Numbered from the stretch's first letter, positions 8,703-35,744 are shown. The stretch: DNA of 39,680 nt from Candidatus Omnitrophota bacterium (GCA_016783345.1 JADHWT010000001.1:1-39680); one strand, 5' to 3'. Translations and numbers: made by a program. Notes: a model not told the origin generated them from the sequence alone.

Positions 8703-8751
8703 GCGAAATTTTATTTATAGCGAAAATTTATAGATTTGACCCAAAAAATTA

Positions 8752-8780: not shown

Positions 8781-8796
8781 ATGATAGTTATATGGT

Positions 8797-8918: not shown

Positions 8919-8923
8919 ATGAA

Positions 8924-10444: not shown

Positions 10445-10456
10445 CGCTTTAGCGAC

Positions 10457-11152: not shown

Positions 11153-11883
11153 TAGTAGATGATGAGGCCGAGGTCAGAGAGTATCTAAAGAGCGTACTCG
11201 AACAAAGAGGGTATGCTGTAATAGAGGCATCAGGAGGAGAAAAGGCCCTCACAATACTTAACGAAGAAAATTTTGACCTCGTGCTTTTGGACCTTGTCAT
11301 GCCCGGTATGGATGGATTTCAAGTGCTTAAGGCTATCCGCGCATCTAAAAAATTTTTACCTGTGATTGTAGTCACGGCATACGGCACTGATAAGAGACTC
11401 AAGGAGGCTATCAGTCTCGGGGCAGTAAGTTTTGTCGGGAAGGGTGAGGGTATAACCGAATTTATTAAGAAGATTGAAAGTTGTCTTAAGCTTTCTCCTG
11501 CGAGTATTGAAGAAGAGAAAATTGATATACTGGTGGTCGAGGATGAACCTGCGGTATCCGAGTATTTTGCAGAGATATTACAGGGAGACGGCTATACTGT
11601 TAAGGTCGCGAGCTCAGGAGAAGAGGGGATTAGCCTTGTCATAAAAAATAATCCCAGGCTCATTCTTCTGGATATAATGCTGCCGGGTATTGATGGGATA
11701 GAGACATTAAGACAGGTTAGAAAGGTTGATCAGAAGGTGACAGTTCTTATTGTAAGCGCCCACTTAGATACTATAAACGAGGTAGATAGATATAGCCTGG
11801 ACATATACGCCGAACTGGAAAAACCAGTTGGCGGCGATGAATTAAAGCGTTATGTCAGTGAGATATTGGGTCCTAAGAAATGA
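11134..11883 (+). CDS. Tandem-receiver response regulator (REC-REC, no output domain)
   Basis: 249 aa. REC1 has KILVVDDEAE, LLDLVMPGMDG, VTAYG and FVGKG. REC2 has ILVVEDEP, LLDIMLPGIDG, VSAH and a canonical EKP. Confidence 0.88.
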   Translation: MPKKILVVDDEAEVREYLKSVLEQRGYAVIEASGGEKALTILNEENFDLVLLDLVMPGMDGFQVLKAIRASKKFLPVIVVTAYGTDKRLKEAISLGAVSFVGKGEGITEFIKKIESCLKLSPASIEEEKIDILVVEDEPAVSEYFAEILQGDGYTVKVASSGEEGISLVIKNNPRLILLDIMLPGIDGIETLRQVRKVDQKVTVLIVSAHLDTINEVDRYSLDIYAELEKPVGGDELKRYVSEILGPKK

Positions 11884-12836: not shown

Positions 12837-13921
12837 AGATCATTAATCGGTACATGCTGAGAGAGTTTTTAGTCTCTTTTGGCCTTGCTATTGCTATTTT
12901 TTCTTTTGTCCTGCTTATGGGAAATATCTTTAAAATTACAGACCTCATTATCAACAAGAACGTAGAGATAGGGCTTGTAGCAAAATTTTTGGCCAATACA
13001 TTTTCGTACCTCCTTTCCTATATTATTCCTATGAGTATGCTCACAGCTTCTCTTATGCTCTTTGGCCGGCTTTCTTCTGACCATGAAGTGGTAGCTATGA
13101 AGGCGAGCGGGATGAGTTTCGGAGAGATCCTGAGGCCCTTTATAGTGCTGGGGTGTTTTGTATGTCTTGGGCTTTTTTTACTAAATCACACAGTTATTCC
13201 TCATGCAAGCTATAGAAATCTGCTTTTTAAAAAAGAGATAACTATGAAAAAACCACAGGCCTTGTTAGAGGAGAGGGTTTTTAACGAGAGTTTTGACAAG
13301 TATACCGTCTATGTCAATAAGATTAAAGGTTCTAAGATCGAAGGTGTCCGCATATGGGAATTAAGACCTCAGGGAACTCCCCGTGTTATCACTGCGCGGG
13401 AAGGTGAGTTTATGACGAGTGAAGATAAAAAGACCCTTATCCTGAGACTCGGCAGAGGGAGTATCCAGGAGGTCTATGAAAAGGATACGGTTAAATATCA
13501 CAAGATGGATTTTACGAATCATTTTATTCAGCTTTCCTGCAGTGATCTATCAGAAGGGGGGGCGGAAAAGCGGGCCAAGGATATGACATTTATGGAACTC
13601 AAAAAAAAAATGGATAAATTAAAAGAAAAGGGAGTGGATATAAGCCCGTTACTTACGGAATACTATGAAAGACAGGCGCTTTCTTTCGCATCGCTTCCTT
13701 TTATATTGGTGGGGATATCTCTGGTTATCAAGACAAAGCGGGGGGCAAGGTCTTTTGGCTTCGGGATAAGCCTTGTTGTCTTTATTATTTATTACCTTTT
13801 GCTTATGCTGGGAGAGACATTGGGCCGCAAGGGCTTCAATCCGGGCTTAAGTGTGTGGGCCCCTAATATTATTTTGTGCGCGGTCGGACTATTTCTTATT
13901 GTGAGAGAGGACAGGAGATAA
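12833..13921 (+). CDS. LptF/LptG-family LPS export permease
   Basis: 362 aa with a GTG start overlapping the upstream stop. The start ..IINRYMLREF is typical of YjgP/YjgQ. The layout is 3 TM, a periplasmic domain of about 150 aa, then 3 TM. Confidence 0.85.
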   Translation: MKIINRYMLREFLVSFGLAIAIFSFVLLMGNIFKITDLIINKNVEIGLVAKFLANTFSYLLSYIIPMSMLTASLMLFGRLSSDHEVVAMKASGMSFGEILRPFIVLGCFVCLGLFLLNHTVIPHASYRNLLFKKEITMKKPQALLEERVFNESFDKYTVYVNKIKGSKIEGVRIWELRPQGTPRVITAREGEFMTSEDKKTLILRLGRGSIQEVYEKDTVKYHKMDFTNHFIQLSCSDLSEGGAEKRAKDMTFMELKKKMDKLKEKGVDISPLLTEYYERQALSFASLPFILVGISLVIKTKRGARSFGFGISLVVFIIYYLLLMLGETLGRKGFNPGLSVWAPNIILCAVGLFLIVREDRR

Positions 13922-13927
13922 TAAATT

Positions 13928-14209
13928 ATGCCTACGTATGAATATGAGTGCAAAAAATGCAAGCATACCTTTGAGGTGTTTCAGTCTATTATTGCCCCTG
14001 CTCTAACGGATTGTCCTAAATGCAGCGGTAAAATAAAGAGGTTAATCGGGGGAGGCGCTGCCATAATTTTTAAAGGCTCCGGGTTTTATAAGACGGATTA
14101 TCGCAGTGAGAGTTACAAGAAAAGCGCAGAGGCTGAAAAACCTAAGCCTAAGGAAGATACTAAGCCTAAGGAAGATACTAAGCCTAAAGGGGAGAAAACT
14201 AATAAGTAA
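13928..14209 (+). CDS. FmdB-family zinc-ribbon protein with repetitive K/P/E-rich tail
   Basis: MPTYEYECKKCKHTFEVFQSI....CPKCSG is the CxxC_CxxC_SSSS signature. The tail is KPKPKEDTKPKEDTKPKGEK. Confidence 0.85.
   Translation: MPTYEYECKKCKHTFEVFQSIIAPALTDCPKCSGKIKRLIGGGAAIIFKGSGFYKTDYRSESYKKSAEAEKPKPKEDTKPKEDTKPKGEKTNK
14144..14190 (+). repeat. 18-nt tandem repeat (about 2.6 copies) inside the FmdB-family CDS
   Basis: AAGCCTAAGGAAGATACT at 14144-14161 and 14162-14179, with a partial copy at 14180-14190. It is in frame and encodes KPKEDT repeats. Confidence 0.9.
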
Positions 14210-14210
14210 A

Positions 14211-14573
14211 ATGACCAAACAGGAGCAGCTGATTATAATCCTTTTAATCATAGCTGCACTTATAGGGACAGGGCTTTTATATCACCGTAAGTTTTATAAA
14301 ACACAGGTTACCCCGGAGGTAGTTAAGGCGAGAGAAGTGACGGTGTCTAAAGAAATCTCTAACGAGGCAAGGGTCTCTAAAAAAATCAATATTAACGCAG
14401 CCGGCAGCAAAGAATTGCAGAAGCTGCCATGTATCGGTCCTAAAATAGCCGCTTATATCGTAGCCTATAGGAATAACCACGGTCCATTCATGAAAATTAG
14501 CGAGATAAAAAATGTGGATAAGGTCGGTGAAGCGACTTTTAAAAAGATAGAGGATTTGATTGCAGTTGAGTAA
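14211..14573 (+). CDS. comEA: ComEA-family helix-hairpin-helix DNA-binding protein
   Basis: Start moved to ATG 14211 (MTKQEQLIIILLIIAALIG, TM anchor). The ORF-track extension from 14106 only reads through the upstream repeat in another frame. HhH region NINAAGSKELQKLPCIGPKIAAYIVAYRNNHGPF. Confidence 0.8.
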   Translation: MTKQEQLIIILLIIAALIGTGLLYHRKFYKTQVTPEVVKAREVTVSKEISNEARVSKKININAAGSKELQKLPCIGPKIAAYIVAYRNNHGPFMKISEIKNVDKVGEATFKKIEDLIAVE

Positions 14574-14590
14574 GTTGAAAGGAATAAAAA

Positions 14591-16693
14591 ATGCATATTA
14601 ATTTACTCTGGATGGCGCCGGCAGGGTCGATTGCAGCCTTACTTTTTAGTCTCTACCTTGCCATAAATATTCTCCGCATGGATGAAGGTAATGAGACAAT
14701 GAGGAAGATTGCAGATGCTGTAAAATCAGGGGCCCAGATCTTTCTCAAAAGGCAATACACAACTATCGGTATTTTTTTTGCCGTAGCGTTTATTATACTT
14801 TTTATTCTCATGAAAAAGGGTTATCTGCCGGGGCCTGTCCCATATGCATTTCTTACCGGAGGATTTTTTTCCGGACTTTCCGGTTATCTGGGGATGAATA
14901 TAGCGACACGTTCAAGCTCCAGAACAGCCTGTGCCAGTATGAAGAGCCTGAACAGCGGACTCAGGGTAGCGTTTTCCAGCGGAGCTATTATGGGCCTTAT
15001 GGTAGTTGGGATGGGTCTTCTCTACATCAGTATAGGATATTATTTCCTTAACTGGCTCTATCGGGCAATGCCTCTTACAGAGCGGATAGGTATGATTACG
15101 AGTGTAATGCTTTGTTTTGGTATGGGTGCCAGTTCCGTTGCCTTGTTCGCAAGAGTGGGGGGAGGAATCTTTACCAAGGCCGCGGATGTAGGCGCGGACC
15201 TTGTCGGAAAAGTTGAGGCAGGGATACCTGAAGATGACCCCCGCAATCCAGCTGTTATTGCTGATAACGTCGGTGACAATGTTGGTGATGTAGCCGGCAT
15301 GGGTGCTGATCTTTATGAATCCTATGTAGGTGCAATTGTTGCTACTATGGCCTTAGGTGCAGCTGCCTTTGGTAAATTGGGTATGAGTCTTCAGAGTATA
15401 ACAATTCCTATGGTAATAGCAGCAGTTGGAATAGTTTCTTCAATACTGGGAACATTTTTTGTCCGTTCCGGAGAAGAGGCTGATCAGGGTGTATTACTCA
15501 AGGCCCTGCGCAAGGGTGTATTCTTCAGCGCAGGCCTAATTGCAGTTGCTTCATTTTTTGTCGTCCGTTTTATTTTAGGAATGGAATATATTGGCATATT
15601 TGGTGCAGTTATAACTGGCCTTATAGCCGGGATTATCATCGGACTTTCTACTGAGTTTTTTACTTCTGCCCGTTATTCACCTACACGGTTCATTGCTGAT
15701 CAATCTTTAACAGGGCCGGCAACAGTGATTATTGGAGGATTAGCTGTTGGAATGTTATCAACAGTAATACCAGTTTTGATTGTGGGTATAGCAATACTTC
15801 TAAGTTATTTTTTACCGGGAGGCGCTAAAGACCCTAATATGGGGCTTTATGGTATTGGCATAGCTGCCGTAGGGATGTTAAGCACACTGGGTATTACTCT
15901 TGCTACTGATGCCTACGGGCCTGTGGCTGACAATGCAGGAGGGAATGCCGAGATGAGTAAGTTAGGCCCTGAAGTGCGCCAGCGTACTGACGCACTGGAT
16001 GCACTTGGAAATACAACTGCCGCGACAGGTAAAGGTTTTGCTATTGGTTCTGCAGCTCTTACTGCCTTAGCACTTATCGCGGCCTATCACAATGAAATTA
16101 TCCGATTAGGCGGGAGACTGAATCTTACACTCCTTAATCCCCGGGTTGTGGTGGGTCTCTTTATCGGCGGGATGCTCCCTTTTTTCTTTTGCTCTATGAC
16201 TATGAGTGCTGTAGGAAGGGCTGCAGGGAAGATTGTAGTAGAGGTACGGAGGCAGTTTAAAGAGATAAAGGGTCTTATGGAGGGTACGGCCTTGCCTGAC
16301 TATGCCTCTTGTGTAGACATAAGCACCAAGGCAGCCCAGAAGGAAATGATTGCTCCTGCTCTTTTGGCTGTTATAGCCCCTATTGCTGTAGGGCTTTTAG
16401 TGGGAATAGAGGCTAATGTGGGGCTTTTGGTGGGAACTACTGTCACAGGTTTTGTCATGGCTATGTTTTTGGCTAATACAGGCGGCGCATGGGACAATGC
16501 AAAAAAATTTATTGAAGAAGGTGCGCATGGGGGGAAAGGTTCTCTGCCGCATAAGGCAGTGGTTGTGGGAGATACTGTTGGGGATCCGTGCAAGGATACA
16601 GCCGGCCCTTCGATTAATATTCTTATAAAGCTTATGAGTATGGTTTCCATTGTATTTGCTTCGTTTATTATTGCAAATTCGCTGGTGAAGTGA
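14591..16693 (+). CDS. hppA: Membrane-integral pyrophosphatase (H+/Na+-PPase), K+-dependent subtype
   Basis: 700 aa and polytopic. Motifs [45 protein letters not shown] and [23 protein letters not shown] are present. Confidence 0.93.
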
Positions 16694-17736
16694 ATAATAG
16701 CGCTGACAATTCGCTCATACGATTTATGCCAGCGCTATTGTTATTATTTTTCACCAGTTGCTCGTCATCCCCGCCGCTTTATAAAGAAACGCAGGTTCTT
16801 ATGGGGACGACTGTTGAGGTGACGATTGAGATAGGGCGCCCAAAGGGCATGCGCCTAAAAGGCGCTAGGGAAAGGGCCTCAGAAATTTCGAAAAGACTTT
16901 TTCATAGGCTTAAGGAACTTGAGACAAAATTTAGCCTGTATAACCCTGAGAGTGAAATTAACATGGTGAATAAAGTGGCGAGGGTAAAGTTAAGCCCTGA
17001 ATTTTTTGAGCTCTTAGAGAAAAGTTTAATCTATTCAGAGCTTACATCCGGTGCTTTTGATATCACTATTGCGCCTCTTGTAAAACTGTGGGGATTTAAA
17101 GAGCATAAGCCTAGGCTTCCCAAGGAAGAGGATATTAGAGATGCGCTTAAGAGAAGCGGCTATACCTCTATTATACTTTCAGCGAATGCGCATGAGGTAA
17201 GTTTTTCTAAGCCCGGCGTAGAGATAGACATGGGCGCTATAGCAAAAGGTTATATTGTTGATGAGGGAATAAAATTTTTAAAAAAAGAAGGGATTGATTC
17301 AGCCTTAATCAACGCAGGCGGAGACCTCTACTGCATAGGAACTCCATCCGGTAAAGAAGGTTGGAAAGTTGCGATACGGCATCCCCGTAAACGAGGTAAG
17401 AACATCGCGCAACTTACTATTAGTGATAAGGCTGTAGCCACTTCCGGAGATTATGAAAATTTCTTTCTCTATAAAGAGAGATTTTTAAGTCATGTGATTG
17501 ATCCAAGAACCGGATGGCCGTCTGAGACAGGTGTAGTAAGCGCTACAGTCATTTCACCTAAGAATTGCGAGGCGGATGCCCTGGCAACTGCGCTTATGGT
17601 CATGGATAAAAAGAAGGGGCTTGATTTAATCAATCACCTCGATGGAGTAGAGGCTATAATTGTCTCCCTTGAAGATGGTAAACTTAATACTGCTGTCTCT
17701 TCCGGGCTTGAAGGAAAGCTCAAATTTGAACTTTGA
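16690..17736 (+). CDS. apbE: FAD:protein FMN transferase (ApbE family) lipoprotein
   Basis: 348 aa. Lipobox-like [11 protein letters not shown]. ApbE blocks [30 protein letters not shown] and ATSGDYE are present. The GTG start overlaps the hppA stop. Confidence 0.85.
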
Positions 17737-21732: not shown

Positions 21733-21824
21733 GTATGTCCCTTGTCGCAGAAGATGTTGCGACTTCGGGATTAATTCGAGCATACACTTTATGAAACATA
21801 AAGTGTGCTCTCATTAAAAGGAGG
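21733..21824 (+). promoter_or_regulatory. Conserved two-hairpin 5'-leader element, copy 2 (upstream of the PGVGQYYN membrane protein)
   Basis: P1 is TCCC-TT-GTCGC (21738-21748), loop AGAAGATGTT, then GCGAC-TTC-GGGA (21759-21770). P2 is GAGC-AT-ACACTTTATG-AAA-CATAAAGTGT-GCTC (21778-21810). TCATTAAAAGGAGG follows. Confidence 0.65.
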
Positions 21825-21831
21825 TGGAAAA

Positions 21832-22215
21832 GTGAGAAAGTTAGTAGTTATTTTAGCGGTTGTTCTTCTTTTAGGTTTTGCCCAGGATGTCCTGGCTGAC
21901 GGTGCGGGATGGGTTCCTCCAGCTGGAGAGAAGGATCCGAATACTGCACTGGTCCTTTCAGCTCTCCTCCCCGGAGTGGGTCAATACTATAATGACCAGC
22001 TGTATTATAAAGGTATAGCTTTTGGGCTGGCGGAAGCATTAGGATGGGTAATTGTAGGCGCAACTTCTGACGAGTGGTTTGGTTTTACTATAATTTGCGT
22101 TAACCATATAGCAAGCGCAGTTGACGCATATGTCCAGGCTGGCAGGGTCAATCAGGGAGTAAGTCTCAATATAACACCTGAGGGTCCGGTCTTAGCCTAT
22201 AGCCATAGTTTCTAA
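21832..22215 (+). CDS. Small secreted/membrane protein with PGVGQYYN motif (paralogue of 2802-3260)
   Basis: 127 aa. GTG 21832 follows AAAAGGAGGTGG. It has a signal-like N-terminus, LLPGVGQYYNDQ, a hydrophobic segment, VDAYV, and a C-terminal ...HSF. Confidence 0.7.
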   Translation: MRKLVVILAVVLLLGFAQDVLADGAGWVPPAGEKDPNTALVLSALLPGVGQYYNDQLYYKGIAFGLAEALGWVIVGATSDEWFGFTIICVNHIASAVDAYVQAGRVNQGVSLNITPEGPVLAYSHSF

Positions 22216-23047: not shown

Positions 23048-24331
23048 ATGAAAAAAAGGATAATGATTTTTTTAATATTATGGCCTCTACTTTGTGTTGG
23101 GGTCATAGCTCAAGAATCTAAAGCTATTGAGGAACCGAAAGTTAAAGAGGATGAGATAAGCTATCTTGATATCCAGAAGGATACTCCTCATATTTCGGTT
23201 CTCGAAGCTAAAAAATATAAAACAGACGATGGGAAAAGAATGGTGGAGGTAACGATAGAGAATACTTCCAGCCTGGAGATACCCAATATAATCGTTTCTT
23301 TAAAAATGGGGACATTAATCGTGGGAGTGCCTTATGAGATATTTATTCCAGCCTTAGGATGCAAAGAGAAAAAAACGTTTTCATATCAATTGCTTAAGGA
23401 AGGCGATGAAGTGACAATAGAAATGCAGTTTTTAAATAAATCATATGCCTCGACTGTCTATTTAACAAGGGTTGGACAGGAACTGCCTAGCATAAATTCC
23501 GCCCAGTTTGCTCAGGAAGGGACGCTGGGCAGTAAGGTCAGTTTTAATATAAATATGGAGAGGTTAGCCGGCGAAGAAAAAAACTTTCGCCTGGTAGTGC
23601 TGAATCTGCCTCGCCAGCTGGATTTTAGCTTTATTGACTCAGCTACTAAGGCGCAGGTAAATCAAGTGAAATTTAGCGAGCAAATTACTACGCAGTCCTT
23701 AAATCTTGAAATTGCCATACCTGAAAAATTAGACCAGGAATTTGTAGATAGGGTTATAGAGTTCTATGTCTTTATCACAGAAGCTTCTGCCTTTCCGACC
23801 ATAAATGCCCTTCACGAAAAGTATGGTTCTAATCCTATAGAGCTTGAAGATATTAAGAAAATCAACGGGAATAAAGTCCGCCTGGAATTAATTCCCAAGG
23901 GGAAAGGTGAATTAGAAGTAGTTATTTCTAACCGTTATCAGGAGATAAAAGTTGGGGAAAAGACTACTATCAGAATAGCTATATATAATAGCGGGACTTT
24001 GAGTCTAATTAATGTTAAGACCGAAGTGGATTTACCTTATGAATGGCAGGCAGAAGTAAAACCAAATCTTATAAAAGAAATATCGCCGGGTGAGAAAGAA
24101 CCGATTAATATTACTGTTATTCCTCCCAAAGATATAGGCATTGGAGAATACGATATCAATGTTAAAGGCGTAGGCGAGGTAGGAAATGAGAAGATAGAGT
24201 CCAAAGAAAAAGACATTATTATCCGGGTAGGGACAAAGGCCAATATTTTAGGTAATATCATTCTTATAGGCATACTGATTATACTGGTAGTTGGCATAGC
24301 TATCGCCAGTATAAAGATAAGCCGAAGATGA
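23048..24331 (+). CDS. Signal-peptide protein with repeated beta-sandwich (NEW3/CARDB-like) modules and a C-terminal TM anchor
   Basis: 427 aa. Signal MKKRIMIFLILWPLLCVGVIAQE. The module IRIAIYNSGTLSLINVKTEVDLPYEWQAEV.P..I.EISPGEKEPINITVIPPKDIGIGEYDINV resembles COG1470/NPCBM-associated NEW3 domains (from memory). The C-terminal helix is ILGNIILIGILIILVVGIAIASI followed by KISRR. Confidence 0.6.
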   Translation: MKKRIMIFLILWPLLCVGVIAQESKAIEEPKVKEDEISYLDIQKDTPHISVLEAKKYKTDDGKRMVEVTIENTSSLEIPNIIVSLKMGTLIVGVPYEIFIPALGCKEKKTFSYQLLKEGDEVTIEMQFLNKSYASTVYLTRVGQELPSINSAQFAQEGTLGSKVSFNINMERLAGEEKNFRLVVLNLPRQLDFSFIDSATKAQVNQVKFSEQITTQSLNLEIAIPEKLDQEFVDRVIEFYVFITEASAFPTINALHEKYGSNPIELEDIKKINGNKVRLELIPKGKGELEVVISNRYQEIKVGEKTTIRIAIYNSGTLSLINVKTEVDLPYEWQAEVKPNLIKEISPGEKEPINITVIPPKDIGIGEYDINVKGVGEVGNEKIESKEKDIIIRVGTKANILGNIILIGILIILVVGIAIASIKISRR

Positions 24332-25698
24332 AACTTAAATTATATATAAAATTGGGGTTGGGAATAGCCTTTTTATTTTGCCCTAATAAAGGGATAGCGC
24401 AAGAGGTGGCTAATCAGTCCATTATTTATAATCTTACCGATAGTATAAAGTTAGCCATGAAGACCAACCCAACGGTTCAGCAGGCTTTACAGGAGATAGA
24501 GCGTACCAGGGGGGCACTCTTGAGTTATGCCTCCCAAAATAATCTGCCTCAGCTTGAATATACGCGGACAGAATCTTTTTCCAGGGCTATACCGTCAAAA
24601 AAGACAATTAAAAATACAGCCGGGGTAGAGCAGGTACTCTATAGATTCGGACAAGAAAACGTGACGGAAAAGGAGGATTTTCGAACAGCCAGAACCGCTT
24701 ATGTCAAAGCTATGAACGACACCATCTATAACGTCAGGACAAATTATTTAAATGCCCTTCTTTTACAAAAGCAGCTTAGACAAAAGAGAAGCCTGTTAAA
24801 AGAATATGAGAATAGACTGAAGATAAAGAAGGCAGAATATGAGCTGGGGGAAATTACACTGGCTGATGTTATAGATGCTGAACTACAGATAATTACCCAG
24901 GAAATTAGCATTGATAACGTGGAAAACGACCTTGACCAGTATAAAATGGATTTTCTTACCTTAATTGGTAAAGATTTACAGGATTTTATGTTAGAGGAAG
25001 AATCATGGGAGGCGGAGTTTAATGTGGAAGAAGCTATAAGATATGCGCTAGACACAAGAATAGAGATAAGAGATTTATCTAAAGAAATAAGGATACAGGA
25101 AGGTATTGTTAGAGAGGCCTTATGGAAGGTTTCTCCTGATATTACTCTTACCGGGACTGAAGGAAGATTCCTGGAACAATACGATTTAAGCTTAACCAAG
25201 ACCAGTGATAAGATCTCGGCAGGTCTTGATGTTACCAGGGACCCGGCTCTAACTTCCATGACTGGTAAGTATAGAGATGAGTGGGGGTTTAGCCTGAGTG
25301 TTTCCCTTCCTCTTTTTGAGGGATTAAATATGGCCGGGGCGAGGAGAGAAGAGATAGCTACTCTGGAAAAATCTAAATTTGAGATGGAAGCCAAGAAGGA
25401 CGAGATAAGGAAAGAGATAATAAGGGCTTATACTATTTTTTCCAAAAAGAAAGATAAATTAATCCGCCAGAACAAACAGATGGAGTTAAAGAAAAGGAAA
25501 TGGCAGATTATACAAAAATTAATTGATCTTGGAAGAAGTTCATATTATGAGTTAAATACAGCCAGAGATGATTTTAATTCAGCTGAAGAGAGCTACTATA
25601 ACACGGAGCGAGAATATATATTAGCTCAGGAAGGTATTAGAAAGGTGATGGGAGAATATTATAAATATATGGGGGATTACCTCAAATATTGGGAGTAG
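24328..25698 (+). CDS. TolC-like outer membrane efflux protein
   Basis: 456 aa. Signal-like N-terminus, OEP-family start LTDSIKLAMKTNPTVQQALQEIERTRGAL, and a second repeat with ...EEAIRYALDTRIEIRDL... The heptad-rich helices are typical of TolC. The start overlaps the upstream stop (ATGA). Confidence 0.8.
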   Translation: MKLKLYIKLGLGIAFLFCPNKGIAQEVANQSIIYNLTDSIKLAMKTNPTVQQALQEIERTRGALLSYASQNNLPQLEYTRTESFSRAIPSKKTIKNTAGVEQVLYRFGQENVTEKEDFRTARTAYVKAMNDTIYNVRTNYLNALLLQKQLRQKRSLLKEYENRLKIKKAEYELGEITLADVIDAELQIITQEISIDNVENDLDQYKMDFLTLIGKDLQDFMLEEESWEAEFNVEEAIRYALDTRIEIRDLSKEIRIQEGIVREALWKVSPDITLTGTEGRFLEQYDLSLTKTSDKISAGLDVTRDPALTSMTGKYRDEWGFSLSVSLPLFEGLNMAGARREEIATLEKSKFEMEAKKDEIRKEIIRAYTIFSKKKDKLIRQNKQMELKKRKWQIIQKLIDLGRSSYYELNTARDDFNSAEESYYNTEREYILAQEGIRKVMGEYYKYMGDYLKYWE

Positions 25699-25702
25699 AA
25701 AA

Positions 25703-26410
25703 ATGCTTGAAACAATAAAGCTAAAAAAGATATATGAGAATAGAGTATTGGCTGTTAATGAAGTGGACCTGAAGATTGAGGCAGGAGAGATATTTGTTCT
25801 TTTAGGTGCTAATGGCGCAGGCAAGACTACTATAATTATGCTTATCCTTGGCTTTACTGACCCAACCAGTGGGACTGCGTTAATAAACGGAATTGACGTG
25901 GTTAAAAATCCTTTAAAAGCCAAAAAGCACGTTGCCTATGTCTCGGAAAATGTCATACTTTATGGAAACTTTACTGCCCGACAGAATCTGGACTTTTTTA
26001 CCAAATTAGCAGGTAAAACAGGATTGACTGATAACGATTATGACAAGGTTCTGAAAAGAGTAGGGCTGCCTCAAGAAAGTTTCAATCGGAGGGTAGGGAG
26101 TTTTTCTAAGGGTATGCGGCAAAGACTTGGGATAGCTATTGCTATTTTAAAAGATACAGAGGTGATTCTCCTTGATGAGCCTACTTCAGGTTTGGACCCT
26201 AAAGGTGGGAAGGAATTTTTGGATATCTTGAGAGGCTTAAGGGATGAGAATAAGGCTATATTTATGTCTTCCCATGATATCTTCCGGACAAAAATTATTG
26301 CTGACCGGGTAGGGATTATGCATAGTGGGAATCTGGTTAAGGTTATTGAAAGGGAAGAGATGGACAGGGTAGATTTAGAGGAACTTTATTTAAAGTATAT
26401 TGAAGTCTAA
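25703..26410 (+). CDS. ABC transporter ATP-binding protein
   Basis: 235 aa. Walker A GANGAGKTT, signature FSKGMRQRL, Walker B VILLDEPTSGLD, and H-loop SSHD. Confidence 0.93.
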   Translation: MLETIKLKKIYENRVLAVNEVDLKIEAGEIFVLLGANGAGKTTIIMLILGFTDPTSGTALINGIDVVKNPLKAKKHVAYVSENVILYGNFTARQNLDFFTKLAGKTGLTDNDYDKVLKRVGLPQESFNRRVGSFSKGMRQRLGIAIAILKDTEVILLDEPTSGLDPKGGKEFLDILRGLRDENKAIFMSSHDIFRTKIIADRVGIMHSGNLVKVIEREEMDRVDLEELYLKYIEV

Positions 26411-26416
26411 GTATCG

Positions 26417-27805
26417 GTGAATATGTTAGGCACAATTATAAAAAAGGAAATTATCGGCCATATCTTAAGTTACCGATTTATGGTAACTTTTATTCTCTTT
26501 TTCAGTCTGATATTAATAAGCATTTTTATTTTAACCAATGATTACCAAACCAGATTAGATAGTTACAAAGCCAGTGTAAGCAGCCATAAAGAAGAGATAA
26601 ATAAGATAAAAGCCATAAAAGATCCCAATCAAGCTTGTGCAGAATTATTATATAATCAAGGTCTATATGCGGATCGAGCGCCAAAGTCACTTTCAATTTT
26701 AGCTAAAGGGCTTGAGGATAATATACCGGAAGAGGTTCATACAGCCTGGTGGCAACCCAGTACAAGAAAGTTGAATAAGGAACTTTATAGAAATCCCATT
26801 TTTGCTCTCTTTACCACCCCTGATTTTTTATATATTGTTAATATCATCTTGAGCCTGCTTTCACTATTATTTGTCTTTGATACCATCTGCGGAGAAAAAG
26901 AGAATGGCACTTTAAAGCTTATGCTTTCTAATTCTTTACCCAGAGATATAATTCTATTAGGAAAGTGGATAGGAGGTTATATTACCCTTATTGCCCCATT
27001 TTTAGTGGCAGTAATCTCAGGTATAATCTATCTCTATTTTAGAAAAGTAATCTTATTTGACATAGAAATTCTCTCAAGGATAGGTCTTATAATATTAACT
27101 TCCCTGATATATATATCCATATTTTTCACTTTAGGTATTTTTATCTCTACTATTACCAGAAAATCTTCTACAGCACTTCTTTTAGGGCTATTTATCTGGG
27201 TGATATGGATTCTGGTTATTCCAAATTTAGCTCCGGTAATTTCAAGAATTAGTATGCCTATTCCCACTATCCAGAAGATAAATGCTGAAAAGCAAGCCAT
27301 AAATAAGGAAATAGAGATTAAAAAGAGACGAATTTCGCGAACTATGATTGGCTACGGCAAAGAGGCTGAAGAATTAAAAGAAGAATTGGATGAGGAAAGA
27401 AAGAAACGAATAGGAAAATTAGATAAATTTTATGAAGATAAATTAGAAGGACAGGTAAATATTTGCAAGATTCTGTCTCGAATTTCACCTTCTGCCAGTT
27501 TTATATATACTAGCACGGCGTTAGCCCAGACAGGCACAGGTCAATATAAAATTTTTAAACAGGCTTATAAAAGATTTCAGGACGAATTTAGAGCATATGG
27601 AGATCCGTTAGGGAAAAAGAGAAGGAAAAAGGAACTAAAAGAGAATTGGTTCCACGAGGAAGAACTTCCCACTCTCCAGATAACCAAGGTAAGTATAGCT
27701 CAAGATTTTCCGTTGATACTTTTTGACCTTTTATTATTAGTGGTTTATAATGCCCTCTTTTTCATGGGCGGGTATCTATTTTTCTTGCGTTACGATGTGC
27801 GATAG
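26417..27805 (+). CDS. ABC-2-type permease, paralogue 1 (large loop inserts)
   Basis: 462 aa. TM1, a loop of about 85 aa, TM2, the GEKENGTLKLMLS..LPR..ILLGKWIGGY coupling block, TM3-5, a K/E-rich insert of about 150 aa, a final TM, and terminal FLRYDVR. The start could also be ATG 26423. Confidence 0.8.
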   Translation: MNMLGTIIKKEIIGHILSYRFMVTFILFFSLILISIFILTNDYQTRLDSYKASVSSHKEEINKIKAIKDPNQACAELLYNQGLYADRAPKSLSILAKGLEDNIPEEVHTAWWQPSTRKLNKELYRNPIFALFTTPDFLYIVNIILSLLSLLFVFDTICGEKENGTLKLMLSNSLPRDIILLGKWIGGYITLIAPFLVAVISGIIYLYFRKVILFDIEILSRIGLIILTSLIYISIFFTLGIFISTITRKSSTALLLGLFIWVIWILVIPNLAPVISRISMPIPTIQKINAEKQAINKEIEIKKRRISRTMIGYGKEAEELKEELDEERKKRIGKLDKFYEDKLEGQVNICKILSRISPSASFIYTSTALAQTGTGQYKIFKQAYKRFQDEFRAYGDPLGKKRRKKELKENWFHEEELPTLQITKVSIAQDFPLILFDLLLLVVYNALFFMGGYLFFLRYDVR

Positions 27806-27818
27806 GAGTTAGTAAAAG

Positions 27819-29204
27819 ATGCTCTGGCTGATTATAAAGAAAGAAGTACTGGATCACCTTCTGAGCCTGAAATTCAGCATTACCTGCATCCTGTGTTTTG
27901 TAGTTATTCTCTCCAGCGTTATTGTACTCTCCAGAGATTATAAAGAAAATCTCATGGACTATCACACAAATATAGTTATGCATAGAAACGAGGTTTTAAG
28001 TTCTGGACAGGGGGGGCAAGCATGGAAAATTTTTGAGGGGATAAAAGTGGATAAGCCCTTAAATGCGATGGAGATATTTTTCAGGAATCCCAATCGAAAA
28101 GGTAATATTACAGCCAGGGTGAGAGCTGGAGATGAACCTCGGTTTGAAAGTGAATATGAGGAGAATCCAATTATTCATCTATTTTCTATTATTGATCTAA
28201 GGTATTTTATCGGGATTATTATGGGGCTTTTAGCTATTATCTTCAGTTATGATGCTGTGTCAGGGGAAAAAGAAGCCGGGACATTGAGATTGGTTGTATC
28301 CTATAGTGTTCCGAGAGACAAGGTGCTTTTAGGGAAATGGATCGGGGGATATTTGAGTTTAATCTTTCCGTATCTATTAGCTATAATTTCAGGCCTGATA
28401 ATAGCTATAGTTTCTCCGCAGGTAAAACTGTCAGGAGCCAATTGGCTGGAATTGGGAATGATTATTCTTCTTTCTTTTCTTTATATTTCAGCTATGTATA
28501 CTATGGGCCTGTTTATCTCTGCAAATACTAAAATGGCCTCTACTTCTATTACTATTTTGCTTTTAATCTGGGTAATTGTAGTTTTGGTTATACCTAATAT
28601 CAGCCCCTATCTTGCTTCCCAGATTTTTTCGACTCCCTCAATTCAGGAGATTGAAAAAGAGAAAATGCAAATGGCAAAAGCAGAAGGTGAAAAGTTTCAT
28701 AAAGAGTGGAAAAAATATAATGAGGAATGTGAAAAGAAAAAAATTCCGCAGGCGGAAAGGTGGGAGGGATTTCAAGATAGGCATAACAAATGGCTTTCTA
28801 ACATCAATTCTGAAAGGGAAAAAATAAATACCCACTATAAGAGACTGTTAAATAAACAAGTGAAGATAGCAAAAAATATCTCGCGTATCTCACCTCTGTC
28901 TTCTTTAAATTACAGCATTGTTGACCTGGCTGGAGTGGGTTCTATAGAGACAGATAGATTCTGGAAAGAGCTGGTAAGATATAGAGATAAGGTTAGTAAT
29001 TATATATTAGGGAATCGACCTGAATGGATGAAGAAAAATTGGAAGAATATTGACTTCAGTGATTATCCAAAGTTTCATTATGAAGAGAGTAAATTTTCGG
29101 ACAGGATAAGAGACTGTTTCCCGGATATATTAGTTTTGATTATGTGGAATGTTATATTCTTTATGGGAGCATACTTGTCATTTTTACGATACGATGTGAG
29201 GTAA
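27819..29204 (+). CDS. ABC-2-type permease, paralogue 2 (large loop inserts)
   Basis: 461 aa. It has the same architecture as 26417-27805: GEKEAGTLRLVVSYSVPRDKVLLGKWIGGY, a K/E-rich insert, and the same terminal FLRYDVR. Confidence 0.8.
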   Translation: MLWLIIKKEVLDHLLSLKFSITCILCFVVILSSVIVLSRDYKENLMDYHTNIVMHRNEVLSSGQGGQAWKIFEGIKVDKPLNAMEIFFRNPNRKGNITARVRAGDEPRFESEYEENPIIHLFSIIDLRYFIGIIMGLLAIIFSYDAVSGEKEAGTLRLVVSYSVPRDKVLLGKWIGGYLSLIFPYLLAIISGLIIAIVSPQVKLSGANWLELGMIILLSFLYISAMYTMGLFISANTKMASTSITILLLIWVIVVLVIPNISPYLASQIFSTPSIQEIEKEKMQMAKAEGEKFHKEWKKYNEECEKKKIPQAERWEGFQDRHNKWLSNINSEREKINTHYKRLLNKQVKIAKNISRISPLSSLNYSIVDLAGVGSIETDRFWKELVRYRDKVSNYILGNRPEWMKKNWKNIDFSDYPKFHYEESKFSDRIRDCFPDILVLIMWNVIFFMGAYLSFLRYDVR

Positions 29205-29208
29205 CAGT

Positions 29209-30546
29209 ATGAATAGAAGAATTATTACATCGATTTTTGTAATTTTGTTTTCTTTTTACCTGTGCGGCTGCGGGAATAAAATTGAGAGAAATATCAATAA
29301 ACTGGCAGGGGATCAAGAACAAAGAGAAACTGCTATGCTGGAACTCACTTTAGCTAAGGAGGATGCTATTGAGCCATTGATTAATACTCTCTCCGATACC
29401 AGTAAGCCAGTAGAGGTACGGGTTGATATAGTGACAATTCTATTTCGTATATTGCTTCGCGAATCGGATGAGCGTATCCTGCCAGCACTTCTGGCTAATT
29501 TAAATGACCAGGAACCAAAGGTGAGAGAGGTCATTGTGATTGGCCTGGGCGATTTAAGAAAAAAGGAAGTAATAAAAGATGTTTTGAAGATACTTGGCGA
29601 TGAAAATGAAAAAGTTAGATATCAGGCCATTTGTACTCTGGAAGAGCTGCAGGAAAAGATGAGTCAGGAAGAAAAGGATGAGTTTATTAGCCAGAGTAAA
29701 ATTATTTTAGAGAGCCAGGATAAGTTAGCCCGAGAAAAAGCAGAAGAGATATTGGCTAAAGAGGCTGAGCTTTTAATAGCGGAGGCCGATAAATGTGTTC
29801 TCCAGGCAGATATTAAGAAGGCTGAGGAAGTGTTAATGAAGGCAAAAAAATTAGTACCCGATGGCCTTAATGTCAACTACAAATTAGGGAGATTATATTT
29901 TGACCAGGGAGAGAAAGAAAAAGGGTTAGAAATTTTGACTAAGTATGGATATATAATTTATGTGCCTAAATTTGAAAATTCGCCGGTAATAGACGGAGGA
30001 ATTAAGGATACGGCATGGGGAAAAGCAGCTAAAATTGAAAAATTTTATAAATGCCTCCGGAATGTCTATTCGGCTAAGGAAACAGAAGGCAAATCAGAGC
30101 TTTATGTAGGCTATACAGACGAAGCTTTCTATATTGGCACTAAGGGGTATGAAGATTCTACTGTTAATTTAATTCAGCATTATAAAATCAGGGATAGCCA
30201 TATTTATAAAGATGACTGCTGGGAGATATTTTTGGATACTAAACGCGATTGTAAGACTTATTACCAGATTGTTGTCAATTGCATAGGTGCAGTTTATGAT
30301 TCCTATGAGAAGAAAAAAGAATGGAATGGAGAATATAAGGTTGGCGCTAAGATAAAAGATAAATTTTGGTCTATGGAAATAGAGATTCCTTTTAAACAAT
30401 TACACGATACTAAAGTAGAAAAAGGGACAATTTGGAGTTTCAATCTGAATCGTTTCCGGGCTACTTCTGGGGAATCTTGTCAGTGGAGACCAACCTATGG
30501 GAATCATCATAGGCCGGATTTATTCGGATTTTTGATTTTTGACTAG
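29209..30546 (+). CDS. Lipoprotein with HEAT-like repeats, a helical linker, and a C-terminal CBM9/DOMON-like beta-sandwich
   Basis: 445 aa. Lipobox FYLCGCG. HEAT-like units (AIEPLINTLSD..VRVDIV; LLANLNDQEPKVREVIVIGLGDL; VLKILGDENEKVRYQAICTL). The C-terminus DGGIKDTAWGKA...WSMEIEIPFKQL...GTIWSFNLNRFR resembles carbohydrate-binding family 9-like domains (from memory). Confidence 0.6.
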   Translation: MNRRIITSIFVILFSFYLCGCGNKIERNINKLAGDQEQRETAMLELTLAKEDAIEPLINTLSDTSKPVEVRVDIVTILFRILLRESDERILPALLANLNDQEPKVREVIVIGLGDLRKKEVIKDVLKILGDENEKVRYQAICTLEELQEKMSQEEKDEFISQSKIILESQDKLAREKAEEILAKEAELLIAEADKCVLQADIKKAEEVLMKAKKLVPDGLNVNYKLGRLYFDQGEKEKGLEILTKYGYIIYVPKFENSPVIDGGIKDTAWGKAAKIEKFYKCLRNVYSAKETEGKSELYVGYTDEAFYIGTKGYEDSTVNLIQHYKIRDSHIYKDDCWEIFLDTKRDCKTYYQIVVNCIGAVYDSYEKKKEWNGEYKVGAKIKDKFWSMEIEIPFKQLHDTKVEKGTIWSFNLNRFRATSGESCQWRPTYGNHHRPDLFGFLIFD

Positions 30547-31766: not shown

Positions 31767-32999
31767 GTGGTCAAGGCTCCTCCATCTAAGTCATATACTC
31801 AGAGAGCTATTATGATTGGCAGTATAAATGGAAGTTGTAAAATTGTAAATCCATTATATGCAGATGATACCCTTGCAACAATTAACGCATGGAAGGAATT
31901 AGGCGCTGTTATTAAAAAAGAATCTAACCATCTACGAATAAGAGGATTTTATGGGTCACCTTGCCCAAGGGGTCATTCTATAAATGTTAGAGAATCGGGG
32001 ACACTCCTCAGATTTATCTTACCTATAATTGCTTTAGCTAAAGGTAGTTTTAAGGTTTTAGGCGAAAGAACGTTATTAGGCCGTTCCAATAGAACAATTG
32101 TAGAGGCGTTAAAATCCTGGAATATTAGTATCGCGGGAACAGGCAAAGACCATAAACTTCCGATTAAATTAGAAGGAAAAGGAGAAATTCGAGGTGGTAA
32201 AACTTATGTAAGCGGGGAGCAGAGTTCTCAAACAATATCTTCACTTTTAATAGTAGCACCCTTTGCAAAAGAGGATACAACAATAATCGTAAAAGATAAA
32301 TTGGTTTCCAGACCCTATGTGGATGTTACTATTGATGTTCTTCAACAGGTAGGAATACAGGTAAAAAAAGAGAGTTATAAAAAATTTTATATAAGACGTG
32401 GCCAAAGATTTAAGACGCAAAAAAAATTTATAGTTCATGGGGATTATTCGTCGGCAGCTTTTTTAATAGCTGCGGCAAGTTTACTTCCATCAGATGTTAC
32501 TATTACAGATCTTGTAGATGATAAACAAGGTGATAAAAAAATTATAGATATTTTGAAAAAGATGGGAGCGAAAATAAATCGTGTTGATAATGCTGTGAAT
32601 GTTAAAGGTCCATTTGAACTTAAAGGTATCAATATAGATTGTGGCGATACGCCGGATTTAGTTCCTATTCTTGCAGTTCTTGGTTGTTTTGCTAAAGGGA
32701 AGACAAGAATTTACAATATATCTCATTTAGCACACAAGGAGAGTAATAGGATTACTACACCTGCTGGTGAATTGATGAAATTAGGAGCAGATATATCTAC
32801 AACAAAAAATAGTATAATAGTAAAACAATCTTGTTTAAAGCCGGGGCATGTTTCAGCGCGGGGTGACCATAGGATTGCAATGGCACTAGTAATAGCTGGA
32901 TTGAGGATAGGTGATGTAAGAATAGAGGGGATTGAGTGTATTTCAAAGTCTTACCCCGACTTCTTTAAAGATATAAAATCTCTTGGGGTTAAATTTTGA
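31767..32999 (+). CDS. aroA: 3-phosphoshikimate 1-carboxyvinyltransferase (EPSP synthase); true start probably upstream of GTG 31767
   Basis: Has APPSKSYTQRA, the LGRSNR-type loop, GDYSSAAF, DLVP, KESNR and GDHRIAMA blocks. The in-frame upstream sequence (RITIGKPSQLTG, 31731-31766) looks like the conserved first strand but has no ATG, GTG or TTG. Confidence 0.88.
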   Translation: MVKAPPSKSYTQRAIMIGSINGSCKIVNPLYADDTLATINAWKELGAVIKKESNHLRIRGFYGSPCPRGHSINVRESGTLLRFILPIIALAKGSFKVLGERTLLGRSNRTIVEALKSWNISIAGTGKDHKLPIKLEGKGEIRGGKTYVSGEQSSQTISSLLIVAPFAKEDTTIIVKDKLVSRPYVDVTIDVLQQVGIQVKKESYKKFYIRRGQRFKTQKKFIVHGDYSSAAFLIAAASLLPSDVTITDLVDDKQGDKKIIDILKKMGAKINRVDNAVNVKGPFELKGINIDCGDTPDLVPILAVLGCFAKGKTRIYNISHLAHKESNRITTPAGELMKLGADISTTKNSIIVKQSCLKPGHVSARGDHRIAMALVIAGLRIGDVRIEGIECISKSYPDFFKDIKSLGVKF

Positions 33000-33084
33000 A
33001 CAAGATTAAAAAAATTTATCACTAATAGAAAAGTAAAAATAGTATTAGAGCCCTTTTTTGAAAAAAGTATGCAAAGATATTATA

Positions 33085-33439
33085 ATGAAGAAAGTTAACT
33101 TTAGAATTTAAATTTAAATAAGCAATAAGGAAACCTCAAAAGGCTATTTCTTTAGAACTGAGTGATGAGGTCTATGTACGACTTCAGCCTAAAATAAAAG
33201 GAATTCTTGGTTTTACAATTTTACACTTCAGTAGAAATGATTTATTTAAAAAGGCATCTTCTAAAGATACTGGTTTAGAGTTTAAAGAGATAGGAAAGAA
33301 AGGAAATCGTTTCTCCTGTCCTAATTGTGGAGAAGTTATTACTTTTAATAATAAAAAGGAAGCGGAAATTCTTGATGATACCATTAATTTTCATGGAGCG
33401 TTGCTAAACGTGGATGTTCATAATTCTTATAAGTGTTAA
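33085..33439 (+). pseudogene. Decayed ORF (possible small Zn-ribbon/RHH-like protein) in an AT-rich spacer
   Basis: ATG 33085 (MKKVNFRI) hits stops at 33109-33120. A 106-codon open frame with no start codon follows in another frame (33122-33439): ...ISLELSDEVYVRLQP...FSCPNCGEVITF... Confidence 0.4.
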
Positions 33440-33446
33440 AAATTTC

Positions 33447-33475
33447 TTGCCTTCCTTCTTATACTATGCTATAGT
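33447..33475 (+). promoter_or_regulatory. Strong sigma70 promoter with extended -10 upstream of exbBD
   Basis: TTGCCT (33447-33452), 17-nt spacer, TGcTATAGT (33467-33475). Confidence 0.55.
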
Positions 33476-33603
33476 GCCATTAAAATGAAGGTAAAAAAAA
33501 TAAACTTTTCATATCAGGATAAGACCAAAATTGGTAAATTGGCCATATTTGGTTGGCAAAATTTATAATGGTTTGATAATAGAGAGTAACTCCTCGATAG
33601 GTT

Positions 33604-33647
33604 TGGTATGATAATGAGTGGGCGTATTCCTGCAGGGTTATTGACCT
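33604..33647 (+). repeat. 44-bp direct repeat, right copy (orphan gap 3' fragment)
   Basis: Identical to 31648-31691. It encodes [15 protein letters not shown] but lies in non-coding DNA 40 nt upstream of exbB. Confidence 0.95.
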
Positions 33648-33686
33648 TATTGTAAAAGTTATAAGTTGTAAATTATAGGTAATATT

Positions 33687-34934: not shown

Positions 34935-35744
34935 ATGTTTAAACGAATAAGTGGTTTTGTGTTTGTTGTTGCCCTTGGGGTGGGTTTGAGCCTTAGTGTT
35001 CAAGCTGGGACAGTTGGTAATCCTGTGGGAATAGATTTTCCTAAGGGTCCGGGAGCAATTACTAAAGATCAATTTATAGAAAAGGGCCTGAATCCTATTT
35101 ATTTTTCAGGACAGACAGAGTTTCTCTTCAAAAAGCAATTTGATAGCGCCAACACATCTAACCTTGAGATAGAAGGATTCTGGTATCTGGGTAAAATCTC
35201 TCTAGTTTTTACGGAAAAATTTCGGCCTTTTATTCTCTTAGGTGTCTCAAGCCTTGACATTTCCGGAGATTATGGAACTACCGAGGTAAATTTAAAGGCA
35301 GATACCAGCATTGCATATGGCGGAGGTTTTTCCTGGCTCCTCCTTGATGGGATATCAAAATATGACATAGCATTAGCCCTGAGCGGTCTATATCGTGAGT
35401 CAGAATTTGACGGGGACATGTTAGAGCCTACGACCACTATAACTGATCTAAGTACTAAAATAGAGGAATTGGAGTTTGCGCTGACTGCTTATAAGGATTT
35501 TACAGTATGGAACGTGCCGATACGGCCCTATGTCAGTATTGTCTATGCTGAGAGTGATGTCAATTTTAGTTTTATAAACAATGATAATGGTGCCACCATT
35601 GATTTCGGTGAGGTTGATAACAATCGTAACGTGGGCATTGCCCTGGGATGCGAGAAGGAGCCCCTAAAGGGGTTGGGGGTAAATGTGGAGCTTAGGCTTA
35701 TCACCGAAGAGGCGCTTACTGTAGGAGCTACTTTAAAATTTTAA
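34935..35744 (+). CDS. Outer-membrane beta-barrel protein (porin/OMP-like)
   Basis: 269 aa. Signal peptide ending SVQA, alternating amphipathic strands, and a C-terminal ...ATLKF aromatic terminus typical of BAM substrates. Confidence 0.55.
   Translation: MFKRISGFVFVVALGVGLSLSVQAGTVGNPVGIDFPKGPGAITKDQFIEKGLNPIYFSGQTEFLFKKQFDSANTSNLEIEGFWYLGKISLVFTEKFRPFILLGVSSLDISGDYGTTEVNLKADTSIAYGGGFSWLLLDGISKYDIALALSGLYRESEFDGDMLEPTTTITDLSTKIEELEFALTAYKDFTVWNVPIRPYVSIVYAESDVNFSFINNDNGATIDFGEVDNNRNVGIALGCEKEPLKGLGVNVELRLITEEALTVGATLKF

Follow-up and report, generated by a model that had tools for sequence, protein, structure and literature searches.

The 39,680-nt stretch of Candidatus Omnitrophota DNA analyzed here (JADHWT010000001.1, positions 1–39,680; hereafter the window, to which all coordinates refer unless another locus is named) carries, between positions 23048 and 30546, six genes on the plus strand, g1 to g6, which are a real operon and a genuine, conserved envelope-spanning module, in which an ATP-binding cassette (ABC) transporter of the ABC-2 type (the ATPase g3 and the permeases g4 and g5) is encoded together with a TolC-like outer-membrane channel (g2), a membrane-anchored protein of the NEW3 family (g1) and a lipoprotein (g6). 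On balance, the operon probably specifies an ABC-2 exporter that is tripartite, linked to TolC, and of a conserved yet undescribed type. We further propose, as a view that we would stop just short of calling probable, that the g1 family is an unrecognized class of adaptor for NosY-like ABC-2 pumps of several, mostly uncultured phyla, built as a C-terminally anchored stack of three immunoglobulin (Ig)-like domains with a MexA-like α-hairpin at its tip, and that the window operon is a natural hairpin-less version which still uses its TolC. The pump type itself is known; judging from the sequences and structural models, what appears to be new here is a structurally different adaptor on a TolC-dependent tripartite ABC pump, and the loss of the hairpin at the window locus. 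Full-text searches of the literature (for DUF3526; NEW3 with ABC-2; COG1470/PF10633; and adaptor with ABC-2 and Planctomycetes) returned no description of the module.

The g1 family carries an adaptor-like hairpin and accompanies TolC

Tripartite pumps are thought to require an adaptor of the HlyD family. As the first-pass annotation of the window had stated, no such adaptor is encoded here: no open reading frame (ORF) of at least 110 aa in the window matches the Pfam families for HlyD and other membrane-fusion proteins (MFP), and 71 of 79 related loci are without one within 10 kb. These 79 loci were drawn from species-representative genomes, and the six window proteins were compared with the ORFs of each locus by phmmer. 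A jackhmmer search for the HlyD family found eight ORFs in the 79 loci, none of them adjacent to a gene of the system, and the absence of a canonical adaptor is therefore a trait of the whole family, with the g1 family as the obvious candidate for the role. Those HlyD ORFs that were checked are each followed immediately by an AcrB-family transporter gene and thus belong to neighboring resistance–nodulation–division (RND) pumps. As a separate observation, in three loci (L060, 15707–16987; L068, 14934–16214; L074, 8026–9306) a 426-aa HlyD-family gene follows the system at a distance of 2–3 kb and in the same orientation; no transporter gene adjoins it in L060, where its surroundings were examined.

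Nearly all homologs of g1 are about 510 aa long (500–520 aa), and the ~80–90 residues directly following their signal peptide are absent from the 427-aa window copy. The g1 protein of the syntenic locus L080 (P0122) is 59% identical to window g1, and its AlphaFold2 (AF2) model (mean predicted local distance difference test score, pLDDT, of 89) shows, from the N- to the C-terminus, a hydrophobic helix, a helical hairpin (residues 39–77 and 83–118; pLDDT ~96), three β-sandwich domains, the last of which is the NEW3 domain, and a transmembrane (TM) helix. Searching all PDB sequences with a family profile gave, at E ≤ 0.001, periplasmic adaptors only: the MacA/MexA chimera 4dk1 (1.8e-4), MexA (3.7e-4), 4l8j and MexJ. 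AcrA, MacA, ZneB and a MexC-like protein came next with weaker matches, and all matches, strong or weak, were restricted to the hairpin. The alignment with MexA extends over 79 residues and has no gaps; in it, a Leu of the family (44 of 46 sequences) and a Ser or Thr seven residues further on (30 of 46) align with the L and S of RxxxLxxxxxxS, the RLS motif with which adaptors bind the TolC tip (PMC3391258). A hidden Markov model (HMM) of the hairpin, run over the 4,556 ORFs of the 79 loci, matched every full-length g1 homolog; its only other matches were two proteins that are genuine HlyD-family members by Pfam, and these were hit inside their hairpin regions.

The second line of evidence is the association with TolC. 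In all 19 loci having both genes, TolC and g1 are adjacent and on the same strand, and in 13 of these the two overlap by 4 nt. The TolC gene lies on the strand opposite to the ABC genes in nine loci, so that the g1–TolC pair stays together when it is separated from the ABC genes. From the hairpin of the orthologs and this constant adjacency, the g1 family looks like a non-canonical adaptor, that is, an equivalent of the membrane-fusion adaptor in role, with another fold. The first-pass annotation had regarded g1 as a protein with a likely glycan- or surface-binding fold that brackets the transporter; that it is no more than this is not supported, since its orthologs bear a hairpin in nearly every other lineage and, where TolC is encoded alongside, are always adjacent to it. 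The reading of the module as adaptor-less survives in part, in that a HlyD-type adaptor is indeed missing, but the orthologs of g1 have an MFP-like hairpin and sit beside TolC. The annotation had also held that an adaptor-like fold in one of the six proteins would overturn this reading: such an element is present in the orthologs of g1, but it is absent from the window copy, and the rest of g1 is not an adaptor fold. That the anchored β-sandwich protein is itself the exported substrate, as had been suggested, is unlikely because a conserved stop-transfer TM helix, with RR after it, forms the C-terminus of g1.

Several points weigh against an adaptor role. The evidence is computational throughout, the g1 family being known from sequences and models alone. 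The family has no conserved Arg in the RLS motif: the orthologs have a HlyD-like hairpin whose tip keeps L and S/T without R, and window g1 has neither hairpin nor tip. The similarity emerged only when the family profile was compared with PDB sequences, and not in Pfam, where ten hairpin-bearing homologs searched at E ≤ 1 gave no significant adaptor or hairpin model, just weak matches to OEP; E-values between 1e-4 and 1e-3 on a coiled-coil segment could, moreover, be inflated by composition. The body of the protein, as modeled, resembles Ig-like domains of adhesins, integrins or macroglobulins, not those of adaptors. A Foldseek search with the P0122 model returned Ig-like tandem domains (integrin, α-2-macroglobulin, ASH-type) and no adaptor among the 50 matches listed, from which it follows that the g1 body is not an adaptor fold; the whole-protein search is dominated by these Ig-like domains and is uninformative for the hairpin. 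Neither g1 nor the ten homologs match HlyD_D23, HlyD_3 or Biotin_lipoyl_2, even at E ≤ 1, and the lipoyl and β-barrel domains of canonical adaptors were thus not found. Loci from Aminicenantes retain the hairpin without an adjacent TolC. Finally, window g1 is itself without the one element that argues for docking to TolC, and an adaptor role at this locus is therefore extrapolated from the orthologs.

The hairpin has been excised from window g1 and the shortened protein is under selection

Window g1 (23048–24331, plus strand; 427 aa) is a hairpin-less ortholog of the NEW3-family adaptor-like protein. Pfam detects NPCBM_assoc/NEW3 (E = 2.8e-13) and CARDB in residues 289–388, and no curated NCBIfam model covers the protein; a signal peptide and a C-terminal TM helix are evident, and the domain limits given here were mapped from the P0122 model. 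The signal peptide (residues 1–21, 23048–23110; …VIA/QE) aligns with the N-terminal hydrophobic helix of the homologs. Of hairpin helix 2, a stretch of 25 residues from its base is left after the signal peptide (residues 22–46, 23111–23185), ~74 residues of the homologs' hairpin being gone (alignments A2 and A3). Next come β-sandwich domain 1 (residues 49–138, 23192–23461), without the 19-aa helical insert of P0122; β-sandwich domain 2 with a short helical element (residues 148–270, 23489–23857), which belongs to the region recognized by Foldseek as tandem Ig-like/MG-like domains; the membrane-proximal NEW3/CARDB β-sandwich (residues 275–395, 23870–24232), placed by both Pfam and the model; and the TM anchor with its conserved SRR end (residues 400–426, 24245–24325), supported by sequence, alignment and model. 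Hairpin and helical insert have both been removed from the window protein, as a clean domain excision relative to P0122. The intergenic gap upstream of g1 measures 67 nt and leaves no room for a missing exon-like piece, and a six-frame search of the window with the hairpin HMM found no hairpin-like coding sequence.

An independent assembly, L081 (91–93% identical), encodes the same hairpin-less form (426 aa), also beside TolC. The ratio of non-synonymous to synonymous substitutions (dN/dS) between the two is 0.14 for g1, 0.17 for TolC, 0.05 for the ATPase and 0.13 for permease A; the hairpin-less g1 and its TolC are thus maintained under purifying selection. Loss of the hairpin could nevertheless have cut the ABC part off from TolC, leaving an exporter that works in the inner membrane only, with a TolC that serves other pumps. 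Two facts speak for such a decoupled or decaying system: another hairpin-less lineage, not related to this one (L044/P0298, 37% identical), is without a nearby TolC, and TolC is the least conserved component, being 39% identical to its counterpart in L080 as against 60–82% for the other five proteins. TolC is, however, the fastest-evolving component in every lineage; the 4-nt overlap of g1 and TolC has been retained; both genes are under purifying selection in the very lineage that lost the hairpin; and the deletion is a clean excision in which the supporting insert has also gone. We therefore regard decoupling as very unlikely, and continue to favor a g1 that acts together with its TolC.

Two further points centered on the channel were considered. 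Replacement of the TolC gene at the time of hairpin loss was rejected, as TolC evolves fastest in all lineages. A gate loss like that reported for BesC was looked for in window TolC, but the alignment of the system TolCs with Escherichia coli TolC (alignment A5) is, at just 14–19% identity, too divergent to single out a change specific to the window; in it, the equivalent of D153 is kept and those of Y362 and R367 are apparently absent from all system TolCs, not from that of the window alone.

NosY-like permeases with enlarged, presumably periplasmic loops

g4 (26417–27805, plus strand; 462 aa) and g5 (27819–29204, plus strand; 461 aa) are paralogous ABC-2 permeases, A and B, of the same architecture and 34% identical to each other, each matching ABC2_membrane_2 plus DUF3526 in Pfam (PF12679, 106 and 111 bits). 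In its AF2 model (pLDDT 86, predicted TM-score 0.83), g4 has a six-TM ABC-2 core of six long hydrophobic helices, the first of which reaches residue 65. A PDB sequence search found NosY as the only solved relative of g4 and g5 (E = 3e-10), and Foldseek with the g4 model also placed NosY first (E = 3.7e-5; TM-score normalized to the target of 0.74–0.78), followed by ABCG25, ABCA and ABCH. Between TM5 and TM6, g4 carries a helical insertion (residues 285–426, 27269–27694) that coincides with the DUF3526 match and whose helices (285–309, 315–354 and 374–403) are modeled with high confidence; by the topology of NosY and of the ABC-2 fold this insertion would be periplasmic. In that fold the TM1–TM2 and TM5–TM6 loops face the periplasm, and in NosY these two loops reportedly hold NosD. 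Here they amount to ~85 aa and ~145 mostly helical residues, respectively, or ~230 residues per permease subunit, and judging from the model they could make up a periplasmic domain able to engage g1, the substrate, or both.

Both permeases end in the sequence FLRYDVR (27785–27805 and 29184–29204), of which F456, R458, Y459 and D460 are invariant in 26 family members (alignment A1); the motif follows TM6 and is therefore presumably cytoplasmic.

The size of these loops bears on whether the system is truly adaptor-less at the window locus, with the periplasmic helices of g4 and g5 reaching and opening TolC directly, and g1 and g6 reduced to accessory binders of surface structures or glycans. The ~145 confidently modeled helical residues of each permease and the extended TM1 helix are in keeping with this arrangement, as is the missing hairpin of window g1. 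The longest permease helix, though, has 40 residues, which corresponds to ~60 Å and is probably too short to reach TolC alone. The permeases of the hairpin-bearing locus L080 are of equal length (460 and 462 aa), so that no compensating change accompanied the loss of the hairpin, and g1 is the invariant core partner, found beside TolC in every locus that has the two. There is a precedent for such a mechanism in BesABC, a pump whose adaptor has no hairpin and whose function has been explained by direct contact of transporter and outer-membrane factor (PMC4446572). Taken together, we find direct opening of TolC by the permeases unlikely, and prefer a bridging role for g1 in the window lineage too.

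g3 (25703–26410, plus strand; 235 aa) is an ABC ATPase with a match to ABC_tran in Pfam, and NCBIfam places it near the DrrA/GldA/NodI-like subgroup that serves ABC-2 permeases. g3–g5 show the features of ABC-2 exporters, namely a separate DrrA-like ATPase and six-TM permeases with the NosY/ABCG fold that match ABC2_membrane models, and they have no FtsX/MacB periplasmic-domain or ABC_membrane match that would indicate a MacB-type (type VII) or type I secretion system. The genes do not belong to the characterized systems named in the first-pass annotation, GldAFG, NatAB or Nos, as scores stay below the cut-offs and GldG, NosD and NosL are missing. It is hardly credible, accordingly, that g3–g5 are a characterized ABC-2 system (gliding GldAFG, NatAB/bacitracin-type, DrrAB or lantibiotic immunity) that has TolC as a chance neighbor: g3 does give sub-threshold matches to the DrrA, lantibiotic-protection, GldA and NodI models, and g4 to GldF, but the scores lie far under the curated cut-offs (GldA, 147.4 vs. 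402.6; GldF, 24.2 vs. 288.5; DrrA, 182 vs. 312), there is no GldG-type auxiliary protein, and g1, g6 and the DUF3526 insertion are foreign to those systems.

Gene content and conservation of the module

The six ORFs, with junctions of −4, +4, +6, +13 and +4 nt, were recovered by ORF calling, and Pfam and NCBIfam agree with the coordinates and domain types first assigned to them; all six have strong homologs and are therefore not chance reading frames. The spacer of +6 between g3 and g4 assumes a GTG start at 26417 and would be +12 with the ATG at 26423. Since the public g4 protein has 460 aa, as against 462 aa when read from the GTG (26417–26425), the true start is probably this ATG, 6 nt past the GTG. 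g2 (24328–25698, plus strand; 456 aa), whose start overlaps the stop codon of g1 (ATGA), has a signal peptide and two OEP repeats (PF02321, 124.8 bits against a cut-off of 22; E = 4.6e-36), as expected of the outer-membrane factor family; its adjacency to g1 and its dN/dS are in line with a TolC-like outer-membrane factor, and against the subfamily model TIGR01844 it scores 95 bits, under the cut-off of 225. g6 (29209–30546, plus strand; 445 aa) is a lipoprotein with an LCGC lipobox, HEAT repeats (29452–29754; HEAT_2), a TPR-like segment and a CBM9-like domain (29989–30531; CBM9_1). Searched against PDB sequences, g6 matched only designed HEAT and TPR repeat proteins. Its HEAT, TPR and CBM9-like architecture recurs beside the transporter in loci from Latescibacterota, Phycisphaerae and Kiritimatiellae, which makes it a conserved accessory.

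That the genes form a conserved envelope-spanning module, as first supposed, was upheld by synteny. Going by record titles, the 79 loci span Latescibacterota, Gemmatimonadota, Planctomycetota, Sumerlaeia, Kiritimatiellae, Verrucomicrobiota and Aminicenantes, and the module as such is conserved in Omnitrophota, Planctomycetota, Latescibacterota, Gemmatimonadota, Acidobacteriota and others. g1, the ATPase and the two permeases constitute a core that is conserved throughout, in dozens of loci, those of Aminicenantes included; TolC and g6 are frequent accessories of this core. The six-gene set recurs in L080, where gene order is identical to that of the window, in two loci from Phycisphaerae (Planctomycetota; L022 and L040), where a single operon has the order TolC–g1–ATPase–permease A–permease B–g6, and in L001 from Latescibacterota, where all six gene types are present. 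Two tandem g1 paralogs are usual in Latescibacterota and Gemmatimonadota, and many genomes contain the system in two or three paralogous copies, a multiplicity normally seen with efflux pumps. Over 560 matches were obtained for the permease family; a search for the g1 family in a library clustered at 50% identity gave 280 cluster representatives at E ≤ 1e-30 and 1,926 at E ≤ 0.001, weak domain-only matches included.

Two variations on the gene set were also seen. In L071, L077, L079 and L061 (Aminicenantes and similar), six to nine tandem permease paralogs surround a single ATPase and g1, and in L009 from Latescibacterota (8529–17282 of that locus) several tandem g6-like HEAT-repeat paralogs follow one system.

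The cast of proteins also allows a different kind of machine, a mechanotransducer like NosDFYL, in which ATP would drive conformational work on g1 and g6, for example in the assembly or remodeling of a surface glycoconjugate, and nothing would cross the permeases. Among solved structures, the permeases are related to NosY alone, the combination of a permease with a periplasmic β-rich partner and a lipoprotein parallels NosY, NosD and NosL, and g6 has a CBM9-like domain. On the other hand, neither g1 nor g6 nor their neighbors match the NosD or NosL families, and no nos genes are nearby; no conserved glycan-synthesis genes were found near the system; and a conserved, translationally coupled TolC, together with an MFP-type hairpin in the family, points to a conduit across the outer membrane. 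A mechanotransducer is, in our judgment, highly improbable, and the following account keeps to an exporter.

A proposed model for the probable exporter

In the machine that we envisage, a dimer of the g3 ATPase would be the motor that drives a heterodimer of the NosY-like six-TM permeases g4 and g5, whose enlarged TM1–TM2 and TM5–TM6 loops would jointly form a periplasmic domain. g1, tethered to the inner membrane through its C-terminal helix, would act as the bridge, its three β-sandwich domains stacked toward the outer membrane. In most relatives the distal, N-terminal hairpin of MexA length would then meet the TolC-like g2 tip-to-tip. In the window lineage, from which the hairpin has been excised, docking might take place via the first β-sandwich domain, via the periplasmic helices of the permeases, or via both. 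Here, BesA serves as a precedent, being an adaptor without hairpin that works with BesC (PMC4446572). Three stacked β domains plus a hairpin of ~55 Å would resemble the reach of a classical four-domain adaptor, and the tandem g1 paralogs found elsewhere would suit two non-equivalent adaptor positions around a TolC trimer. g6 may be a scaffold or a substrate-handling factor. As to the substrate, on which the neighboring genes give no clue, our best guess would be an amphipathic compound (small molecule, peptide or lipid) that the pump would take up from the membrane or the periplasm.

Sequence composition and genomic context

The first-pass annotation had described the operon as AT-rich and possibly an acquired cassette. 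Its genes do have a lower GC content, as claimed, but the size of the difference had been overstated: they have 33.9–38.8% GC, against 40–47% for most other genes of the window, with aroA (35.6%) and an exbD-like gene (38.1%) as exceptions. The difference lies largely in codon positions 1 and 2. At third codon positions (GC3), operon genes range from 0.31 to 0.40 and most others from 0.36 to 0.50, and aroA (EPSP synthase, 31767–32999), with 0.226, has the lowest value in the window, under that of every operon gene; a low GC content is thus not confined to the six genes. L081 (85% identical to the window) becomes homologous 34 nt upstream of g1 (position 23014), the sequence before it being unrelated; what precedes the operon in L081 (positions 1–1046 of that locus) is an ORF for a small membrane protein, together with non-coding DNA of ~600 nt. 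The operon thus sits in different contexts in related genomes. The GC drop of 4–6 points and this break in synteny are in favor of acquisition, but the drop is largely one of amino-acid composition, GC3 overlaps that of host genes and no mobility genes were found in the window; the case for an acquired cassette is a weak one.

Housekeeping genes flank the operon (hppA, apbE, glnA, gap, aroA, exbBD, tRNAs and an lptF/G-like gene). A scan for promoters and terminators gave counts no better than those in shuffled sequence, and an Rfam scan of the window returned three tRNAs only. At 9700–13921, overlapping two-component genes (receiver, histidine kinase, double receiver, histidine kinase) run into the LptF/LptG-family permease gene, which points to an outer membrane that contains lipopolysaccharide. 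Elsewhere in the window are two DUF5683 paralogs (2775–3260 and 21805–22215); a 687-nt AT-rich gap between aroA and exbB (33000–33686), which has only two minus-strand ORFs (66 and 39 aa) and no Rfam match; and a 269-aa ORF without a Pfam match between tRNA-Tyr and tRNA-Gly/Val (34935–35744).

Significance and comparison with known systems

If the proposal is correct, a second adaptor architecture exists which shares with the first only the TolC-docking hairpin, and the hairpin would then be a transferable element whose body is replaceable; in the window lineage, TolC would be engaged without tip-to-tip docking of a hairpin in an ABC pump too. L080 and the window, 60–82% identical in the parts other than TolC, are a natural pair with and without the hairpin and offer a ready test of how the channel is engaged and opened. 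The proposal would give a role to DUF3526 permeases and to a few hundred clusters of hypothetical "NEW3 domain-containing" proteins (from Latescibacterota, Gemmatimonadota, Planctomycetota, Acidobacteriota and Omnitrophota), and would widen the use of the NosY fold, known from copper delivery, to export across the envelope. Its practical impact depends on finding a substrate and a tractable host, and is limited for now.

MacAB-TolC and other ABC tripartite pumps, including the little-studied ABC-2 system YbhGFSR of E. coli, share with the window operon a co-encoded inner-membrane ABC unit with a periplasmic domain and a TolC-family channel, and the wider g1 family adds an α-hairpin of MexA/AcrA length with the L and S/T of RLS. 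The window permeases differ in being NosY-like ABC-2 proteins, and neither MacB/FtsX-type nor type I secretion ABC transporters. In contrast to HlyD-family adaptors, the presumed g1 bridge has no lipoyl, β-barrel or membrane-proximal domain; the chain in this family is linear, running from an N-terminal hairpin (absent from the window copy) through three Ig-like sandwiches to the C-terminal TM anchor. GldAFG likewise combines an ABC-2 ATPase, a PF12679-type permease and a large anchored periplasmic auxiliary protein, whereas the window has no GldG domain and has two long permease paralogs together with TolC, g1 and g6.

The closest solved relative of g4 and g5, in both sequence and fold, is found in NosDFY(L) (PDB 7o0y and 7znq), which has the same cast of an ABC-2 permease, a periplasmic β-rich partner and a lipoprotein. 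Unlike it, the window operon would form a heterodimer of paralogous permeases, each with ~190 extra periplasmic residues; the partner is an Ig-like stack instead of the β-helix of NosD, and a linked TolC is present. With regard to the missing hairpin, the nearest parallel is BesABC of Borrelia: although BesA belongs to the canonical HlyD-family adaptors and serves an RND pump, BesABC is a natural tripartite pump whose adaptor is without an α-hairpin and whose outer-membrane factor has been kept (PMC4446572).

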